A stretch of DNA of 32,000 nt from Candidatus Harpocratesius repetitus (GTDB taxonomy: Archaea; Asgardarchaeota; Lokiarchaeia; Sigyniarchaeales; Promethearchaeaceae), in assembly GCA_021498095.1 (NCBI GenBank), contig JAIZWK010000001.1:1980001-2012000 (forward strand). The letters run 5' to 3'. Below are positions 8,655 through 23,832 of this stretch, one piece after another. How positions within the stretch are numbered: position 1 is the stretch's first letter; the number at the start of each line of letters is the position of its first letter. The position numbers and the translations under genes are program-made. The notes beneath the pieces are model-generated. The model ran no database searches, had not been told where the DNA came from, and saw only the letters and a program-made list of their open reading frames with translations.

Positions 8655-9872
8655 TTAAATTTTGAGCACAAATTTTGGTTTTAATTTTAATTCCATCTTT
8701 CCCAATTGTAGATCTTCAATTTTATTTACTACTTTCTTACCACGATATGAAAACTGGGTTTCGGCTACATCACTGAATATAGTAATTGCTTCTTCATTTT
8801 CTTGCTCACAGATAAAATATCTCATACCATCAATCTCGAGAACATCCGTAACTCTATTAATGTGAGAGAGAAGATATCCTCCACCATGAGGAACAACATT
8901 AAAGTTCGCAAGATGATGATATACATTATTTTTTTTTGCTCGTTCTTCAAAGCCTAAATTCATAATTTGTTCTGAGTTTAGATTTGGTAACGCACTAACA
9001 ATATACATTGGTAAATCGGATCGAAGTGCTACAGGAAATAATTTCTTTGGATCTTCTGTTATATGTTGAGATCCTAATAATAATTCCCCATATGTTACTA
9101 ATCCTTGATGCATTGGATTAGAAATTACTTCGATTTTTCCAAAAAGCATTTCTGCGGCTTTTTTACGTTTTTCTGCAGCATACCAATGAGCATATTTGAA
9201 AAATTCCATAAATTCCTTTGCATCTGTTCCATCTAAATAAAGAATTGGCCCAAAAGGTGTTTCGATTTTTTTACATATATCTCTTAAGTCAGGTGATTTA
9301 TCATAATATAAACCGGGACCTTTTTCTGTTTTTTGACGTAATTCAGGTACAGAACCATGAATAACGAACATATAATTTGGATATTTTGTCGATTCTGAAT
9401 AGTTTTTCTCAATTTCAAATACATCAATAAAATGGTTTCCTTTTTTGAAGTCCCATTGAATTTGGATATTATCAATAAATACTTCTTTTTGAATAATTTT
9501 ATTGATATTTTGGATGATTTCACTTGGTTCTGGTAAAGTTTCCAAACCACCGACCAACATTCCACAAGCATTTGGTTTTGTATCAATAAAGATTAAAGGA
9601 TCTTTATCATCTCCCCAAGTTAATTTGCCGCCATACCCATATCCATTTTGCCACCTAATCTTATTTCGAGAAATTGTTTCATCCGGTGTTGAGATAAATG
9701 TGGCATTTGGTTCTTTTCCGAGTTGTTCCTGCGCATAATGAATTTTTGCGAGGCCATACTTAAAATTCCAGCGACATAATGAAGATGCACCATCTTCAAC
9801 CCCTAATGAAAAGTAGAATGATTTTGCACGATGAAGCAAATCTACCTTTGACAAGCTCGAAATTGGTTGCAT
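8655..9872 (-). CDS. Divergent RtcB-like (RNA ligase family) protein
   Basis: RtcB motifs in the canonical order: TPD, GYGYGG, NACGM, GNHFID, IHGS, YA-x-x-KR, MHQG, PHGGG, SYR, LKP-x-x-V-x-K at the C-terminus. Confidence 0.7.
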   Translation of the reverse strand: MQPISSLSKVDLLHRAKSFYFSLGVEDGASSLCRWNFKYGLAKIHYAQEQLGKEPNATFISTPDETISRNKIRWQNGYGYGGKLTWGDDKDPLIFIDTKPNACGMLVGGLETLPEPSEIIQNINKIIQKEVFIDNIQIQWDFKKGNHFIDVFEIEKNYSESTKYPNYMFVIHGSVPELRQKTEKGPGLYYDKSPDLRDICKKIETPFGPILYLDGTDAKEFMEFFKYAHWYAAEKRKKAAEMLFGKIEVISNPMHQGLVTYGELLLGSQHITEDPKKLFPVALRSDLPMYIVSALPNLNSEQIMNLGFEERAKKNNVYHHLANFNVVPHGGGYLLSHINRVTDVLEIDGMRYFICEQENEEAITIFSDVAETQFSYRGKKVVNKIEDLQLGKMELKLKPKFVLKI

Positions 9873-11715: not shown

Positions 11716-11748
11716 TTTATATATGTCAAAAATGTAATTGATTTGACA
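11716..11748 (+). promoter_or_regulatory. TATA box plus operator-like inverted repeat upstream of hcp-like gene
   Basis: TTTATATA at 11716-11723, about 30 nt before ATG 11753. It is immediately followed by TGTCAAA-N11-TTTGACA (11724-11748). Confidence 0.55.
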
Positions 11749-11752
11749 GATC

Positions 11753-12337
11753 ATGTATAAAAATAAATTTTCATCTTTATATAAGTTTAAAATTGGCTTT
11801 TTATTGTTATTATCGCTTTGTTATACCCCATTCTTTGTTCAGGCTGTGAATCCACAAGATATTCCATCTCCTTCTACAGATGATGACGCACCTATTCTCC
11901 AGATGAATCTCTGGATTGAAAGTCAAGTTTCTGGAGTTATTCAAGGGAGTTCAACAACAGCAGGTAGGGAAGGTTCGATGGAAGTTCTCGGATATCATCA
12001 TCTTATCTCAACATCTCCTGATAGTACGAATCAACACTCACCTTTTCGCATTGTGAAGGTCGTTGATAAAGCAAGTCCATATTTAATGCAAGCTTTATGT
12101 AATCATGAACTACTCGTTTCAGTGGTTTTACGTTTCTATCAGAAAGATGAACTATATGGAAATTATGTGGAATTTTATCGCATTGAACTGACCAATGCTA
12201 AGTTAATTGGAATTGAAACTCATGCATTAGTATCAGGAGAACTAACAGAAACTATCTCTTTAAATTATGAGTCGATTTCTTGGATTTGGGTAGAAGATGG
12301 AATTGAATATACAGAAACTGTAGGTGATGTTTTCTAA
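11753..12337 (+). CDS. hcp: Hcp/TssD-family tube protein homolog with N-terminal signal peptide
   Basis: Residues ~50-194 follow the Hcp pattern: G-x-I-x-G...GREGSMEVLGYHH...HSPFRIVKVVDKASPYLMQAL...E-x-L-x-x-V-x-LRFY...FYRIELTNA...ETISLNYESISW. The N-terminus is basic, then hydrophobic, ending in VQA. Confidence 0.85.
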   Translation: MYKNKFSSLYKFKIGFLLLLSLCYTPFFVQAVNPQDIPSPSTDDDAPILQMNLWIESQVSGVIQGSSTTAGREGSMEVLGYHHLISTSPDSTNQHSPFRIVKVVDKASPYLMQALCNHELLVSVVLRFYQKDELYGNYVEFYRIELTNAKLIGIETHALVSGELTETISLNYESISWIWVEDGIEYTETVGDVF

Positions 12338-12381: not shown

Positions 12382-13119
12382 TTGATAAAAATGAGAAATT
12401 ATAAAAATTTCACCCAGATTTGCCAACTATGGCTATTTATTTTTACTATTCTATCATCTGGTATGATCTTAAGTAGTTCAGCGTATGATGGTGTGATTAT
12501 TCCTATAAAAAATGCTACACATTATAATTTCTCTGTAATTGTTGTATATGATGTAAATTTGGAAAGCATTTTTTCATTCACAGACAGGAAAGAAGATTCA
12601 TTTGTAACAATTTTGCAATTCTGTGTTGGAGATAAGAATATTGGAATAATGCTATTTACAGTTGATCAAGGTAGTTATTCTTGTAGGTATTTGCTCGGAT
12701 CATTTGATTCATCATTATCGGTATGGGAACAAGGAGCAAAGAACACTCATTTTCAAATATTAGATGAACAAACTATTCAATTCACATTCTTAGAATTAAG
12801 TCCTCAAATTGTATCTTCAGAATTATGCGTATATATTTTAGCATTCACAACTTCTGATTCACCAGAATCGGTAAAAAGCAATTTATCCACCTATTTGGAT
12901 AGTTATCATTCTGCAATTAAAGAATCTCAAAAAATGAGTGAACCTATTTTTAATGAATATAACCAGACTTCTTCAAATATCGGTTCTGATAATTCTACTG
13001 ATAGTAGCCCCGCCAATGATGAAAAATTTAGCATAAATGGGTTTCATAGTTTTACAGTTGTATGTATTTTAACTTTAATTGTGATAATATGGAAAATGAA
13101 AACGAAAGAGAAAATGTAA
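12382..13119 (+). CDS. Secreted, C-terminally anchored surface (glyco)protein with CTERM-like sorting signal
   Basis: Signal peptide ending SSA (likely start ATG 12391). Several N-x-S/T sequons (NAT, NFS, NLS, NQT, NST), a Ser/Thr/Asn-rich linker, then INGF, a TM helix and a basic tail KMKTKEKM. Confidence 0.7.
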   Translation: MIKMRNYKNFTQICQLWLFIFTILSSGMILSSSAYDGVIIPIKNATHYNFSVIVVYDVNLESIFSFTDRKEDSFVTILQFCVGDKNIGIMLFTVDQGSYSCRYLLGSFDSSLSVWEQGAKNTHFQILDEQTIQFTFLELSPQIVSSELCVYILAFTTSDSPESVKSNLSTYLDSYHSAIKESQKMSEPIFNEYNQTSSNIGSDNSTDSSPANDEKFSINGFHSFTVVCILTLIVIIWKMKTKEKM

Positions 13120-13214: not shown

Positions 13215-13502
13215 TTATTGGGCTGCTAAAATATCTGCAGCTGTGATTCGCTTTCGCTTTTCAGCTTTGACAATTTTCAAAGCATCCTTAGTTAATTTTG
13301 TTCCTACTTTTTCTAGTTGCTTAATTAACATGGTTACTGCATCTTCTGCAACTAATTCTGCACCTTCCGCTTTCATTAATCGACGAATAGGTGCTTTGGC
13401 AATATGTCCTCCACTCTTTGATGAAGATTTCTTCTTAGAAGCCGCTTTTTTTGGTGCTGCTTTCTTTTTCGGCTTCGCTTTACTTACTTTTCTCTTAGCC
13501 AT
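13215..13502 (-). CDS. Archaeal histone (HMf-type fold) with Lys-rich N-terminal tail
   Basis: Residues 33-95 (IAKAPIRRLMKAEGAELVAEDA...RKRITAAD) match the HMf fold, including the R-x6-D salt bridge. Residues 1-32 form a tail with 13 Lys. Confidence 0.93.
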   Translation of the reverse strand: MAKRKVSKAKPKKKAAPKKAASKKKSSSKSGGHIAKAPIRRLMKAEGAELVAEDAVTMLIKQLEKVGTKLTKDALKIVKAEKRKRITAADILAAQ

Positions 13503-18434: not shown

Positions 18435-19295
18435 TTGCAAGATCAAATAAAAACTGTCCCTATTCCACAAAAAGCAACAAAAAAGTTTAGAAGCACTCGA
18501 ATTGAAAATGCACCTCCTGATTTATTTGATCCAAATACTCCACGTTTGGGACGTCGTGAAAGTGAACCTCATTCTGCTGAAGTTTCATATCTTTATGATG
18601 TTTTAAATACAAATTTTAAGGATGATAATCGTGTTATTTGGGATTTACATCATTATTTTATTATTGAAAATCAAGAAATTGATTTACAATTTGATATCTC
18701 ATTTTTTAAAGGATTATCGATACCTTATACTTTATCATCATATAAAGCACAGCTATACCAAAATAGAGTTCCTACAATGGTTATAAATATTCTCTCTAAA
18801 AGTACATGGCGGGCTGATGTTGGGGAACATGTGGATTACTGTAAATTACTGAAGATTCCTATTTATGTGGTGTTTAGTGCCTACCATGTAACCTCTGCAA
18901 TCTATAAACCTCCATTTTTACGAGCATATATTCTTCAATCGTCAGGTGATTATAAAATACTTGAAGTAAGAGAACCAACCATAAATGAAGATAACCCATG
19001 CCAAAATCCGTCTGCTATTATTGATTTGCGCCCAATTCTTAATTTTAGGTTAGGGATTATGAAATTAAAGAAGAAACATGAAGGAAATTTAGATTTATTT
19101 CGAATTATAATAATAAAATCCACTGTCTTGAAAAGATATCTTACAGAAATGGAGAAGGAGAAATCAAGAGCAGATCAGGAAAAAGCAAGAGCAGATCAAG
19201 AAAAAGTAAGAGCAGACCAGGAAAAAGCAAGAGCAGATTTATTTGAAAAAAAATATAAAGAACTTAAAAATCAATTAAAAAATTCAAAATCTTGA
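18435..19295 (+). CDS. Uma2-like (PD-(D/E)xK fold) protein with C-terminal coiled-coil repeats
   Basis: TTG start. E-x-x-x-H, D-x-x-FDISFF, MVINILS-x-ST, D-x-x-EH-x-x-Y...IPIYVVF, then EKARADQ repeats. Confidence 0.65.
   Translation: MQDQIKTVPIPQKATKKFRSTRIENAPPDLFDPNTPRLGRRESEPHSAEVSYLYDVLNTNFKDDNRVIWDLHHYFIIENQEIDLQFDISFFKGLSIPYTLSSYKAQLYQNRVPTMVINILSKSTWRADVGEHVDYCKLLKIPIYVVFSAYHVTSAIYKPPFLRAYILQSSGDYKILEVREPTINEDNPCQNPSAIIDLRPILNFRLGIMKLKKKHEGNLDLFRIIIIKSTVLKRYLTEMEKEKSRADQEKARADQEKVRADQEKARADLFEKKYKELKNQLKNSKS
19158..19241 (+). repeat. Four tandem 21-bp in-frame repeats encoding EK(S/A/V)RAD(Q/L) heptads
   Basis: gagaaatcaagagcagatcag / gaaaaagcaagagcagatcaa / gaaaaagtaagagcagaccag / gaaaaagcaagagcagattta. 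Confidence 0.95.
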
Positions 19296-19398: not shown

Positions 19399-22300
19399 AT
19401 GTTCTTGAGCTTAATGATTATTTTACAATTTGGAGAATTCCTACTGAACCATCTTAATTCTATTTTGATTGGATTTAATACATTAATTGGGTTGATTATT
19501 TTTATTCGAATGATGATTCATTCAAGGGCCGAACTTAAAACTGCTCCAAATTATAAATTTCTTCAGAAAAGTAGTAATTTTATCAGTTCATTCGCTTATT
19601 CATTAATGGTTGCATGCACTGTTACCTTTATTTTTGCATTGCTTTCTTCAATGATCGCTGTAAATGCTCTTTATTATGTTAATAATTTTAAACGAGAATT
19701 TTCCAATTACAATCAACTTATTGCAACATTTCAATTTCCTATTTTCCTACCCACGATTTTGCTAATTATGGGAAGTTTTGCGATTTTTTATTCTTTTATT
19801 GAGTATATTTTATTGGCTCAACCTTCCCAAGATGGTCCTATGGAAATTCAAAGGTGGATTGAAAAAACATTTATTGATCGATTTCACCCACCTTGGAGTT
19901 ATATAATGGCCCTAATTGTCTTTTTTATAGTTGTTCTTCTTGCTCCTCTTATTACCACGAAAATATCTTTACAGTTTTGGACAGGATTGCCTTATAATGC
20001 AAAAATTTGGCTTGTTGTTTTAATCTTTTTGGTTTGGATTATGCTGGGTCCCATATTTTACCTTTCATATTATTCTCAAATAGGAATTGCTCAATCTTTT
20101 TATCGTGGAAGGAAAATTAACTTAAAAAAAGATAAGAAGTCTGCTTTCTTTTATTATATTGCCATTTTAGGTATTATAAATACTTTTTATTCATTTGGGA
20201 AATACTTAATATTGATATTTGATGCACGCCCTGATACAGCACTTAATCCGGTAGCTGCACAAGGGGATTTTTGGCCAATTATCTTTAATTTTATCAAAGA
20301 ACATAGCAACTGGTTTACACAAGAACAAATTGAATCAATTATTGCATTTTTTGCAATTTTTCCACTGGGATTCACTAGTTTTATATTTACAACAATTATT
20401 TTTGGAATTGTTGGATTCTATGCAAAATTTCTGAGTAAAGAACCTCTTAACACCCCAAAAATGGTATTATTTGCTGCCTATATTATTACTGGTATTGCTT
20501 TTTCAATTTTCATAAACACTATTGTTAGCTTTCCATATTCATTTCCAACAAAATTTTTAAATTCAATTGGTTTTCCTTTAAACACTCGAAAAGTAGAAGA
20601 TCAGATTCTTTTGCTACGGATTTTTGCCATACCGTTATTAATTGAGAAATCTATAAATCTTTTCTTTTTAATTAATTTTATTTTTGTGAATAAATCAATA
20701 AAGCAACAGATGGAAAAGTTAATTTTAAATCAAGCGATTATTTCTGAAGATTTTTCGATTTTTCAGAAATATATGAATCATAACGATCCACAAATACGAT
20801 TAAAATTGTTTAAACATCTTCTCGATTATATTAAACTTGATCCAAAAATATCTGAAAATGCAAAGCAACAACTTGCAGATATTTTTTCTTCATTTATTTT
20901 TGATGAGAATCCTGAAATCCACCAAAATTTTATTCAAAATTCTTCAATATTACTTGGATATTTTGGTTTTTCACAACAATTGCAACTTGCATATCGATTA
21001 ATTGCTAAAGAATCACCACAATCTATAAAAATGGGTTTTCAAGTATTAAATCAAATTTTAAAATCTACAAAATTGCTTAGTAATAAAGATTTGACTGTTT
21101 TTTTAGAAATTTTGAAAAAAATATCGTTAAAATCCTATAACAAGAAAATTTTCTCCCAACTTACAGATTTTCTTAGTAATCTCCGTAGATTTTATCCTGA
21201 ATTAACTCAAAAATTAGTTTTATCCTTTATTCAATCAACTCCACGCTTTGAAAATTTACTTGGTCTAAATTTTATCGCTCAGTTTCCTAATTTCCTTCAA
21301 TACGAAAAAAGATTGATTGTCTCTTCATTACGCAAATTTCTAAAACAAATGGATGTCGAATTAGTTCAGAGTGCATTGCATGCTTTTGTTCGTTTTGTTT
21401 CAATTGATATCACCTTAATTCCAGATTTAATGAAAGAATTTAATCAAATTACATTAAATGAAAAATCAATAATTCAAGAGAAAATTGGTGGTGTTGTTCA
21501 GTTTAATTTGCTGCGTCCTGAGTGGTTTATGCAGTTTTTTGATTACCTTAAAGTTTATTTAGAGAGTCATAATTATAGAATCAAGGCAGATGCTCTTATC
21601 GCTTGTGGTGCAATGACAGCGCCTATATCTATCTATCAATTTTTTGATCAAATTTATCCATATTTACTTCAAAATATTCAAGCTGAAGAGATTCAAGTAC
21701 AAAAAGCAGTTATTTCATCATTAATTGTAATTGCACAAACACGTTCTGATATTTACAAAGATTCACGATTTCATAGATTATTTACGTACTTAATTGTGGA
21801 TTCTCATTCTGAAATTCGTCATCAAGTATATCGCTTTTTTAAAGATGGAGATCCTGAATATCTTCTTAATGATATTGCTGTTTTACTAAAAACTCCATTG
21901 GATTTGGAAATAAGAGTCGATCTTTTGAATATTTTATCACAGATCATTCCCTCAATTATTCCTTATGTTGATGATATCGATCTTTTTTCAATTTTAATGC
22001 AACAACCATTTGAAACTTCTGAAAACAGAATTAACCTTTCTGTGATTCAAAATTTACAAGATGATAAGACAACTTTATTTGGATTTACTCGTTTTCATTC
22101 CGCTTTCAATCTTTTTGATTCAGTTGCTACACTTTTATATGATTTAACTTACTATATTCCAGACAAATATCCAATTCTTATTCAATTTTCCAAAACTCAT
22201 CAAAATTTGGAAAGTGATTTAAGCATTGCTAAAAAACTTGAATTTTATGCAAGAATCGTTTATGAAGAATTAAGCTTAGAACGTACAGTTGGCATCGATT

Positions 22301-23832
22301 TCTCCATTTCACAATTTTTAAATTTAGTTCATAATGATTTTTCAAAAATACAATATCATAGTACTAGTGTTTTGATAAAATATCTTCCGAAATTACTAAA
22401 AATTGCAGGAGATTCTCATCACGATCTTTTTCAAATTGGTTTTAACCTTTTAAAATTTAAATCTCAATTGAGTCCTGTTGAAAAGGGAAATCTTTTAGTA
22501 TTTTTAACCGAAACGATCTCAAATAATGAAAAGTATTATCTATCGAATATTTCTCTGCTTGATTTTCAGAAGCAGAAATCAATTTCAATTATTCCCTATA
22601 AAGATGTTCTAAATAAATATATGTTATTTTGTATGAAGGATCCAAATCCTGAAATTCAGAGATTTCTTCTAAAATCCCTTCATTTATTAATGATTGGGTT
22701 TTCAGATGAAGGTAAAATTCGCGAATTTTTGATTCACACAATTCGACATTCAAGAGATCCTAAGATTAAATCATCTGCAATGAAGTTCTTTACTTCTCTT
22801 TCTATTGAGATAAACAACAGAGAAAGTATTTCTTTATTTTCGAAACAACTAAGATCATCAAGTATTGAAGTAAAAGCTCAAGCCATTGATTCATTAGGTA
22901 TTATTTTGCGTGCATTTCCTACGATTAGTGCGAATAATAAAAGTACTGAGGCTAGAATCGTTCGTTCTTTATTATATCGTGCTTTTTATGATTCTTATTC
23001 ACCTTCAGCTCCAATACAAATTCGCGCCATCATTATTGCACATTTACAAACAATTCTTTTGATCCAACCGAATTTTCCTGTTTCTTTAAAAATATTAGAG
23101 CAATTATCTCGAGAACCTGATGAATCTCTTGCCTCACAAGCTGTTTCGCTTCTTTTCGATTTTATTGATTTTAATCAGAAGAAATTTGGTGAAGAACTGG
23201 TGATTCTTCATAGATTTTCTAATTCTACTCATTTTTCTGTTCAAAAAATAATGGCAGATCAAATTGCTCGTTTATGGGAGAATAAAATTCAAATTAGTAC
23301 ACTTTTTCCAATAATATTCAATTTGACGACTAGCAATTTCACAGAAATCCGACAATTAGTTTTTAATATTATTTTCAAGATATTTCGCCAGAATAATTCA
23401 CTGATTGCACTTTTTCTTCAAAATCTATTTTCTCTAACTAAAAAGGATGATCATGAGATACGGAGGGATTCTCTAGAACTTATCCTTAATATTATTAATA
23501 ATCTTCCTGTATCTTTAGAAATTGTTGAAAAAGTTAATCAAATTGTTCTTAGAATGTCTGCAGATCAATCAATTGAAATACAAATATTAGTCTCTCAAAA
23601 AATGATTAATCTTATTAATCAATATCCTCAATATAGTACAATTTATCTACATATTATATCGAATTTCCTCCGTACAAATCATTCTGAAATTATTAAGAAT
23701 ATTCTCCCGGCTTGTCGAGTAATTATTCAAAATAAAGCTGAATATAAAAAGCTACTTGCAAAACATGTTAAAAAAATATTTAAAAAAACTCAAAATCCTT
23801 TTCTGGAACCATTATTACGGGAATTAACTTAA
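19399..23832 (+). CDS. Large polytopic membrane protein with C-terminal HEAT/ARM-like alpha-solenoid
   Basis: About 430 N-terminal residues with roughly 10 hydrophobic segments. About 1000 residues of helical repeats follow with HEAT-like ends (DPQIRLK, SEIRHQV, DPNPEIQR, DPKIKSSA, EVKAQA, DHEIRRDS). Confidence 0.7.
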   Translation: MFLSLMIILQFGEFLLNHLNSILIGFNTLIGLIIFIRMMIHSRAELKTAPNYKFLQKSSNFISSFAYSLMVACTVTFIFALLSSMIAVNALYYVNNFKREFSNYNQLIATFQFPIFLPTILLIMGSFAIFYSFIEYILLAQPSQDGPMEIQRWIEKTFIDRFHPPWSYIMALIVFFIVVLLAPLITTKISLQFWTGLPYNAKIWLVVLIFLVWIMLGPIFYLSYYSQIGIAQSFYRGRKINLKKDKKSAFFYYIAILGIINTFYSFGKYLILIFDARPDTALNPVAAQGDFWPIIFNFIKEHSNWFTQEQIESIIAFFAIFPLGFTSFIFTTIIFGIVGFYAKFLSKEPLNTPKMVLFAAYIITGIAFSIFINTIVSFPYSFPTKFLNSIGFPLNTRKVEDQILLLRIFAIPLLIEKSINLFFLINFIFVNKSIKQQMEKLILNQAIISEDFSIFQKYMNHNDPQIRLKLFKHLLDYIKLDPKISENAKQQLADIFSSFIFDENPEIHQNFIQNSSILLGYFGFSQQLQLAYRLIAKESPQSIKMGFQVLNQILKSTKLLSNKDLTVFLEILKKISLKSYNKKIFSQLTDFLSNLRRFYPELTQKLVLSFIQSTPRFENLLGLNFIAQFPNFLQYEKRLIVSSLRKFLKQMDVELVQSALHAFVRFVSIDITLIPDLMKEFNQITLNEKSIIQEKIGGVVQFNLLRPEWFMQFFDYLKVYLESHNYRIKADALIACGAMTAPISIYQFFDQIYPYLLQNIQAEEIQVQKAVISSLIVIAQTRSDIYKDSRFHRLFTYLIVDSHSEIRHQVYRFFKDGDPEYLLNDIAVLLKTPLDLEIRVDLLNILSQIIPSIIPYVDDIDLFSILMQQPFETSENRINLSVIQNLQDDKTTLFGFTRFHSAFNLFDSVATLLYDLTYYIPDKYPILIQFSKTHQNLESDLSIAKKLEFYARIVYEELSLERTVGIDFSISQFLNLVHNDFSKIQYHSTSVLIKYLPKLLKIAGDSHHDLFQIGFNLLKFKSQLSPVEKGNLLVFLTETISNNEKYYLSNISLLDFQKQKSISIIPYKDVLNKYMLFCMKDPNPEIQRFLLKSLHLLMIGFSDEGKIREFLIHTIRHSRDPKIKSSAMKFFTSLSIEINNRESISLFSKQLRSSSIEVKAQAIDSLGIILRAFPTISANNKSTEARIVRSLLYRAFYDSYSPSAPIQIRAIIIAHLQTILLIQPNFPVSLKILEQLSREPDESLASQAVSLLFDFIDFNQKKFGEELVILHRFSNSTHFSVQKIMADQIARLWENKIQISTLFPIIFNLTTSNFTEIRQLVFNIIFKIFRQNNSLIALFLQNLFSLTKKDDHEIRRDSLELILNIINNLPVSLEIVEKVNQIVLRMSADQSIEIQILVSQKMINLINQYPQYSTIYLHIISNFLRTNHSEIIKNILPACRVIIQNKAEYKKLLAKHVKKIFKKTQNPFLEPLLRELT

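Follow-up and report, generated by a model that had tools for sequence, protein, structure and literature searches.

What is a tube protein of type VI secretion systems (T6SS) doing in an Asgard archaeon, behind what looks like a signal for export? The question is raised by the gene at positions 11753-12337 (+ strand) of a 32,000-nucleotide stretch of the Candidatus (Ca.) Harpocratesius repetitus genome (contig JAIZWK010000001.1, positions 1,980,001 to 2,012,000), referred to here as the window. The product is a homologue of Hcp, also called TssD. Hcp serves as a diagnostic marker for type VI secretion, and the archaeal Hcp genes are carried in public annotation as "type VI secretion system tube protein". 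The analysis indicates that the window Hcp is an exported protein, that the T6SS core genes searched for are absent from its genome, and that it is encoded just upstream of a second exported protein with a putative surface anchor (12382-13119, + strand). The two genes probably constitute an operon for a T6SS-independent Asgard cell-surface module, in which a ring of Hcp would be held at the surface by its anchored partner.

Identity and predicted fold of the window Hcp

The open reading frame (ORF) encodes 194 residues in three segments, a Sec-type leader (residues 1-31; 11753-11845), a flexible Pro-, Asp- and Ser-rich linker (residues 32-48; 11846-11896) and a complete Hcp/TssD beta-barrel (residues 49-194 and the stop codon; 11897-12337), all on the + strand. 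The Hcp domain spans residues 49-190 and is complete. Pfam PF05638 (T6SS_HCP) matched with an E value of 3.7e-25 and 89.1 bits, against a curated cut-off of 23.5 bits, residues 59-178 being aligned with positions 4-128 of the 129 in the profile. NCBIfam TIGR03344 (TssD) matched with 82.9 bits, against a cut-off of 58.9 bits.

The structure of the protein was predicted with AlphaFold2 (AF2) using 51 aligned relatives. The predicted local distance difference test score (pLDDT) was 91.9 overall and above 95 across the barrel, the linker being less confident (66-76). When the model was compared with the PDB using Foldseek, the best match was Hcp1 of enteroaggregative Escherichia coli (EAEC; 4hkh), with an E value of 1.8e-15 and a template modelling (TM) score by target of 0.88-0.93, followed by 6a2v, 3he1 and 5mxn. 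The top 50 PDB matches of this predicted structure were all Hcp or Hcp-containing fusions. The likeness to the Hcp/TssD of T6SS, represented by EAEC Hcp1 and by Pseudomonas aeruginosa Hcp1 (1y12) and Hcp3 (3he1), is one of homology over the whole barrel of about 140 residues. The nearly invariant residues of the family are kept. Foldseek aligns the protein with 4hkh at 27-28% identity, and identity to leaderless Hcps of the classical kind, about 160 residues long, is 33-36%. By sequence and predicted fold, the window protein belongs to the Hcp/TssD family. It differs from the T6SS proteins in having a Sec leader and a linker, and in the extended loop L2,3, the ring-stacking loop, which is 7 residues shorter.

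An earlier reading of this DNA, made from the letters alone and referred to as the sequence-only reading, had claimed a full Hcp/TssD protein behind a leader and a linker. The Pfam, NCBIfam, AF2 and Foldseek results all bear this out, and the objection that the protein might have some other fold falls away because the predicted fold is that of Hcp.

The leader and export of Hcp

The leader contains four Lys among residues 1-13, followed by a 16-residue hydrophobic core, and ends in V-Q-A; residues 6-31 form a helix in the AF2 model. Equivalent leaders precede Hcp in 32 of the 32 distinct Asgard Hcp loci examined, with a Kyte-Doolittle mean over 15 residues of at least 1.97, and small residues at positions -3 and -1 recur among them (VQA, VLG, VQS, VIA and VNA). 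The Hcps of three relatives within the window's family, Ca. Lokiarchaeum ossiferum being one, have basic-hydrophobic leaders that end in VLG, VQS and VIA, followed by V, T and L, respectively. The linkers of the homologues also resemble that of the window Hcp in length and composition. Named Asgard Hcps include UCE14079.1 from Heimdallarchaeota and MHA1973611.1 and MHA2363395.1 from Hodarchaeales, all annotated as T6SS tube proteins.

The possibility was considered that translation begins at an internal Met. This residue, numbered 52 in the sequence-only reading, is in fact residue 51. A candidate archaeal TATA box, TTTATATA (11716-11723, + strand), whose function is suggested by the archaeal TATA consensus, lies about 30 nucleotides upstream of the ATG at 11753. 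The spacing fits an archaeal promoter and would give a leaderless or very-short-leader mRNA beginning at M1. Moreover, the start of a 99%-identical protein in another assembly was called at the same position. The conservation of the leader, the shared start in this near-identical relative and the TATA-like box make initiation at Met51 unlikely.

Export of Hcp, and of the partner described below, is well supported by these features of sequence. The leader may be either a cleavable signal peptide, in which case cleavage would follow V-Q-A31, or a signal anchor. The positive-inside rule places the barrel outside the membrane in both cases. A type IV pilin-like (class III) signal was rejected, as there is no short charged N terminus with a G/A cleavage site before the hydrophobic segment.

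Absence of injection machinery

Whole-genome six-frame searches were carried out on the window's own genome, which is a single contig of 4.36 Mb, 93.6% complete by marker genes. Hcp was matched once. There was no match in this genome to VgrG/gpD (PF05954), TssC (PF05943), phage sheath (PF04984), gp25/TssE (PF04965), PAAR (PF05488), TssK (PF05936), Baseplate_J (PF04865) or TssB (PF05591), and the positive controls for all of these families were detected, in E. coli for those of the T6SS. In a sample of 400 genomes of the Asgard phylum, TssC was found in none (0/400).

As the sequence-only reading had stated, no VgrG, sheath, baseplate or ClpV-type gene lies within the window, where the neighbours are housekeeping genes. 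The genome-wide search shows further that a complete T6SS or extracellular contractile injection system (eCIS) elsewhere does not explain the gene, since the eight families are absent. A T6SS component would be a cytoplasmic protein free of a Sec signal and accompanied by core genes; the window Hcp has a conserved leader and the core genes are missing. An eCIS or phage-tail particle fits no better, as PF04984, PF04965, PF04865 and PF05954 are all absent from the genome. In the absence of sheath, VgrG, baseplate and membrane-complex genes, the window Hcp cannot be put together in the cytoplasm and then fired, and the organism, unlike the hosts of T6SS, is a single-membrane archaeon. The proposal that a tube-fold protein has been repurposed for Sec export independently of a T6SS is thus supported by the conserved leader, the predicted Hcp fold and the absence of the machinery. 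The sequence-only reading had suggested that the exported protein might take the form of a ring, a filament or an appendage.

The partner gene

The ORF at 12382-13119 (+ strand), which the sequence-only reading overlooked, starts 44 nucleotides past the Hcp stop codon and encodes 245 residues. The start is listed as TTG at 12382, although the ATG at 12391 is the likelier one. Residues 1-37 (12382-12492) have the character of a signal peptide, with an AF2 helix at residues 7-28, and N-terminal hydrophobic segments are present in all partner homologues. The ectodomain follows (residues 38-190; 12493-12951), a predicted Ig-like beta-sandwich of about 150 residues with pLDDT mostly above 90 and a conserved W115 and F-L-E138. 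Residues 191-217 (12952-13032) form a low-complexity stalk rich in Ser, Asn and Asp with pLDDT below 55. The stalk contains N-x-S/T sequons, the homologues' stalks are S/T- or D-rich at the same position, and the segment is likely to be a glycosylated spacer. Residues 218-245 and the stop codon (13033-13119) comprise a Loki-CTERM-like sorting or anchor signal, in which I-N-G-F is followed by a hydrophobic helix and a tail rich in Lys.

The ectodomain is an orphan. It has no Pfam or NCBIfam family and no Foldseek match in the PDB at E<=1e-3. The matches among AFDB clusters and with VIA-align were generic Ig/FN3-like sandwiches, whose VIA Z scores of 7.2 or less are in the chance range for common folds, and the best ESM Atlas match (0.76) was uninformative. 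Among named relatives, those closest to the partner come from Ca. Harpocratesius sp. (73% identity) and Ca. L. ossiferum.

The architecture of CTERM surface proteins, namely signal peptide, stalk, motif, helix and basic tail, was recognised in the partner by inspection, the motif being I-N-G-F rather than I-P-G-Y/F. The C-terminal layout equals that of the genome's 17 Loki-CTERM matches, which have IPGY/F, a helix and KRK. Among 30 partner homologues, the Heimdall-CTERM model matched 8 and the Loki-CTERM model 2. With regard to sorting signals in this organism generally, the genome encodes at least 17 proteins that end in Loki-CTERM (for example, L038-L045) yet has no match to the Exosortase_EpsH family.

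Conservation of the cassette in Asgard archaea

Hcp is present in 26 of the 400 Asgard genomes and in 4 of 14 genomes of the window's family, its own included. At 29 of the 32 Asgard Hcp loci, a partner homologue lies -22 to +58 nucleotides downstream on the same strand, and the cassette occurs in Lokiarchaeia, Heimdallarchaeota and Hodarchaeales. The genes around the pair vary from genome to genome. When the 400 genomes were searched with a partner profile, full-length matches (E<1e-40) were found only directly beside Hcp, in 23 genomes. A partial copy in one genome, G125 (profile positions 83-231, E 1.8e-43), is far from either of the two Hcp genes there, and all weaker matches are confined to the stalk and CTERM region, a part that many surface proteins have in common. 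Furthermore, genomes with two Hcps have two cassettes, and divergent Hcps are paired with divergent partners, as at L033 and L035.

Purifying selection acts on both genes, the ratio of nonsynonymous to synonymous substitution rates (dN/dS) in close pairs being 0.07-0.39 in Hcp and 0.09-0.29 in the partner. The partner evolves faster than Hcp (61% versus 88% identity in one pair). Functional coupling of Hcp and the partner is well supported by their conserved pairing.

The Ig-like partner is not universal. At three loci of the Asgard family f15 (L020:3-2028, L026:179-2264 and L028:1206-3242), Hcp is followed after 5-31 nucleotides by a gene for a signal-bearing protein of more than 460 residues, in one case with Kelch-like repeats. 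The general rule seems to be that the gene after that for an exported Hcp codes for a surface protein that is likewise exported. Ca. L. ossiferum also has a degraded second Hcp fragment, L005 (G010:C1:2347157-2347369; E 8.9e-4), with four in-frame stops, which is likely to be the pseudogene remnant of a duplicated cassette.

The wider family of exported Hcps and ring formation

A word-indexed homologue search with the window Hcp found only a near-identical copy, and an exhaustive search was needed. phmmer run over 1.84 billion representative proteins returned 1122 Hcp relatives at E<=1e-3. An N-terminal hydrophobic leader precedes the barrel in 134 of the 165 single-domain relatives analysed, and most of the closest 150 relatives in the library bear one. 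In some of the leader-bearing relatives, a textbook A-x-A site stands immediately ahead of the canonical Hcp N terminus. Among the named members are proteins of a Parvularculaceae and of a Planctomycetota metagenome-assembled genome. The statement in the sequence-only reading that bacterial Hcp has no signal peptide therefore holds for the Hcp of T6SS and fails for bacterial Hcp in general, leaders being common among the relatives. Judged from these leaders, exported Hcp is not specific to archaea. A tree of 165 Hcp domains was poorly resolved, 76 of its 158 inner branches being open, and for this reason no call is made on a single origin of the leader-bearing Hcps, on the monophyly of the Asgard proteins, or on donor or direction.

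Several exported relatives contain more than one Hcp domain. There are six full domains in P0004, P0126 and probably P0014, three in P0022, P0026, P0083 and P0137, and two in P0023, P0044, P0088 and P0096. Most of these tandem-Hcp proteins have N-terminal leaders, and in some the Hcp domains are joined to Big_13, collagen-repeat, CarboxypepD_reg or MopE (Cu-binding motif) modules. Since the counts of 6, 3 and 2 divide six, they fit single-chain pseudo-hexameric rings and may be taken to support, indirectly, an extracellular assembly of the fold into rings. The same search also ranked highly four giant leucine-rich repeat (LRR) proteins, P0002 (5242 residues), P0024, P0028 and P0043. These have up to 36 repeats of about 50 residues that resemble the Hcp domain in its N-terminal part (query residues ~62-117), which accounts for their rank. 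Their interpretation as proteins with 36 tandem Hcp domains was rejected, as none contains a full Hcp domain.

Whether the window Hcp would form rings or tubes may depend on the L2,3 loop. In Burkholderia pseudomallei Hcp1, this loop (Asp40-Arg56, with the conserved Pro42 and Gly48) mediates the contact of one stacked ring with the next, and loop mutants remain hexameric while stacking is lost (PMC4650826). The loop has 18 residues in 128 of 165 relatives and 11 residues in the window Hcp and just nine further proteins, a small subclade. Deletion of the loop tip in this Loki subclade would favour single rings over tubes. Assembly of the exported Hcp into a hexameric ring is inferred from the modelled fold.

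Genomic setting

The GC content of the cassette region is 0.29-0.35 throughout, a native composition. The neighbouring genes encode a glycerophosphodiester phosphodiesterase, an HD hydrolase, an archaeal histone, a diacylglycerol (DAG)-kinase-like protein and a GH3 glycosidase. A horizontal-transfer island was rejected on the basis of the native composition and the housekeeping neighbours.

Other genes of the window are of separate interest. The histone-fold protein at 13215-13502 (- strand; CBFD_NFYB_HMF, E 2.6e-10) has an N-terminal tail of about 30 residues rich in Lys, Ala and Ser that resembles eukaryotic histone tails. The ORF at 19399-23832 (+ strand) encodes a HEAT-repeat protein of 1477 residues with a sub-threshold match to Adaptin_N (24.5 bits, cut-off 37), and its product is possibly a eukaryote-like solenoid protein of the coat or adaptor type. 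The ORFs at 8655-9872 (- strand) and 18435-19295 (+ strand), of 405 and 286 residues, have no Pfam family.

Proposed function and alternatives

In the arrangement that we consider probable, Hcp and the partner would both be translocated by the Sec pathway. Hcp would be freed outside the membrane by signal-peptidase cleavage after V-Q-A31, or kept there by its leader acting as a signal anchor, and the Hcp domain would assemble into a hexameric ring, as is typical of this fold. The partner would stay attached through its Loki-CTERM-type anchor on the glycosylated stalk, with the Ig-like ectodomain holding the Hcp ring at the cell surface. The resulting ring-shaped complex would serve adhesion, cell-cell contact or ligand capture, and not injection.

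A number of observations weigh against this arrangement. The partner reads N-G-F rather than P-G-F/Y and matches no CTERM model at E<=1. Moreover, the genome has no match to the exosortase/archaeosortase (Exosortase_EpsH) family, so that lipid anchoring of the partner is speculative. At the three f15 loci, the secreted protein encoded beside the exported Hcp is another, larger one. Oligomerisation of Hcp and its contact with the partner are both inferred, and gene adjacency by itself does not prove binding. When the complex of Hcp residues 48-194 and partner residues 36-195 was predicted with alignments for both, the score was 0.04 against a mark of 0.32, which speaks neither for nor against binding. 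As to the machinery, the gp19 tube family (PF06841) gave no match in the genome, but its control was also silent and the result is uninformative, and the genome is only 93.6% complete. Finally, the motif that follows the helix in the Heimdall group, V-N-(A/T)-(S/T), may equally be an N-glycosylation sequon or a peptidase site, and a membrane-anchored, uncleaved Hcp is therefore possible.

This last ambiguity leads to an alternative in which Hcp is never cleaved and remains a type II membrane protein, monomeric or oligomeric, that forms a membrane-proximal two-component receptor or adhesin with the partner. In the Heimdall group, the leaders include stretches of about 20-25 residues that carry no charge, and the conserved motif after the helix is often N-T-S/T, where the Thr at -1 makes a poor peptidase site. 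AF2 gives a 26-residue helix. However, the window Hcp and its Loki relatives have canonical small residues at -3 and -1 (VQA, VLG, VQS and VIA), and many bacterial relatives have clear A-x-A sites directly before the Hcp N terminus. This alternative is considered unlikely. By analogy with T6SS Hcp-effector pairs, in which cargo is carried in the Hcp lumen, the two proteins might instead be carrier and cargo. The downstream product would then be bound in the ring's lumen of about 40 Å, and the Hcp ring would work on the outer side of the membrane to chaperone the folding of the ectodomain (about 17 kDa), to protect it or to release it, without being a displayed structure in its own right. The ectodomain, at about 150 residues, is within the size range of Hcp-lumen cargo, and the exported Hcp directly precedes the gene for a secreted protein even when that protein differs, being Ig-like at 29 loci and Kelch-like or other in f15. 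A role of Hcp as chaperone and co-receptor is cited in PMC4650826. However, a permanent CTERM or transmembrane anchor is ill-suited to delivered cargo, and the f15 proteins, at more than 460 residues, are too large for the lumen. We regard the carrier role as rather unlikely.

It could also be argued that the gene is a functionless relic, an hcp that was acquired horizontally and left behind by a lost bacterial-type T6SS or eCIS or by a provirus, with a hydrophobic N-terminal extension that is fortuitous. The patchy Asgard distribution (26 of 400 genomes, 4 of 14 in the window's family) would agree with such an origin, as would the degraded Hcp fragment with four stops in Ca. L. ossiferum. However, the ORFs are intact at 32 loci, the dN/dS of Hcp is 0.07-0.39, the leader and the partner are conserved, the cassette has a native composition and housekeeping neighbours, and TssC occurs in 0 of 400 Asgard genomes. 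The selection and synteny data largely refute the relic, which is very improbable. The surface module thus remains the preferred interpretation, and it can be extended, more tentatively. The ring-shaped complex may be a docking or contact device directed toward syntrophic partners on Asgard archaea that lack an S-layer. It would then be one case of a broad, machine-independent extracellular use of the Hcp fold across archaea and bacteria, to which the pseudo-hexamers with 6, 3 and 2 tandem domains would also belong. This wider proposal is possible, though less likely than not.

Relation to known systems and significance

The gene pair resembles several known systems in part. In bacterial orphan hcp-effector pairs and "evolved" Hcps, hcp likewise directly precedes a gene whose product presumably works together with it, and the two genes move jointly. 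However, those pairs need a T6SS elsewhere, have no signal peptides and encode toxins with immunity genes, whereas both Asgard products have Sec signals, the partner is a predicted anchored Ig-like protein without a toxin domain and there is no T6SS. With the PGF-CTERM substrates of archaeosortase A and with Loki-CTERM (NF033507) and Heimdall-CTERM (NF045529) proteins, the partner shares the signal peptide, the ectodomain, the S/T-rich stalk, the (P/S/N)-G-(F/Y) motif, the helix and the basic tail. It differs from them in that its ectodomain is an orphan found only beside Hcp, its divergent N-G-F is below threshold and no exosortase-family match accompanies it. The tubes of phage tails, eCIS and tailocins share the tail-tube fold superfamily with Hcp and act outside the cell. 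However, they are assembled in the cytoplasm with a sheath and baseplate, the genes for which are absent here, and are released by lysis, whereas Sec export of unfolded monomers would be a different route of assembly.

In the literature searched, no paper was found that describes an exported Hcp or an Hcp-partner cassette, and the Harpocratesius genome paper makes no mention of Hcp or type VI. The present analysis adds the members from Lokiarchaeia, the co-occurrence counts over the phylum, the lack of TssC in 400 Asgard genomes, the predicted fold and CTERM assignment of the partner, the selection data, the L2,3 truncation and the 6/3/2 tandem pattern. One practical consequence is that hcp-based T6SS calls in archaea and in many bacteria are probably mis-annotations. 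The cultured Ca. L. ossiferum carries the cassette, so the idea is directly testable.

The Hcp fold is found here without a contractile machine, in a protein that appears to be exported by Sec and is genetically coupled to an orphan, putatively surface-anchored protein, in the archaea closest to eukaryotes. If the pair does form a surface complex, it would represent a new assembly route for the tail-tube fold. It would likewise add a new component to the cell envelope of Asgard archaea, which is poorly understood and mediates the cell-cell contacts that are central to models of eukaryogenesis.

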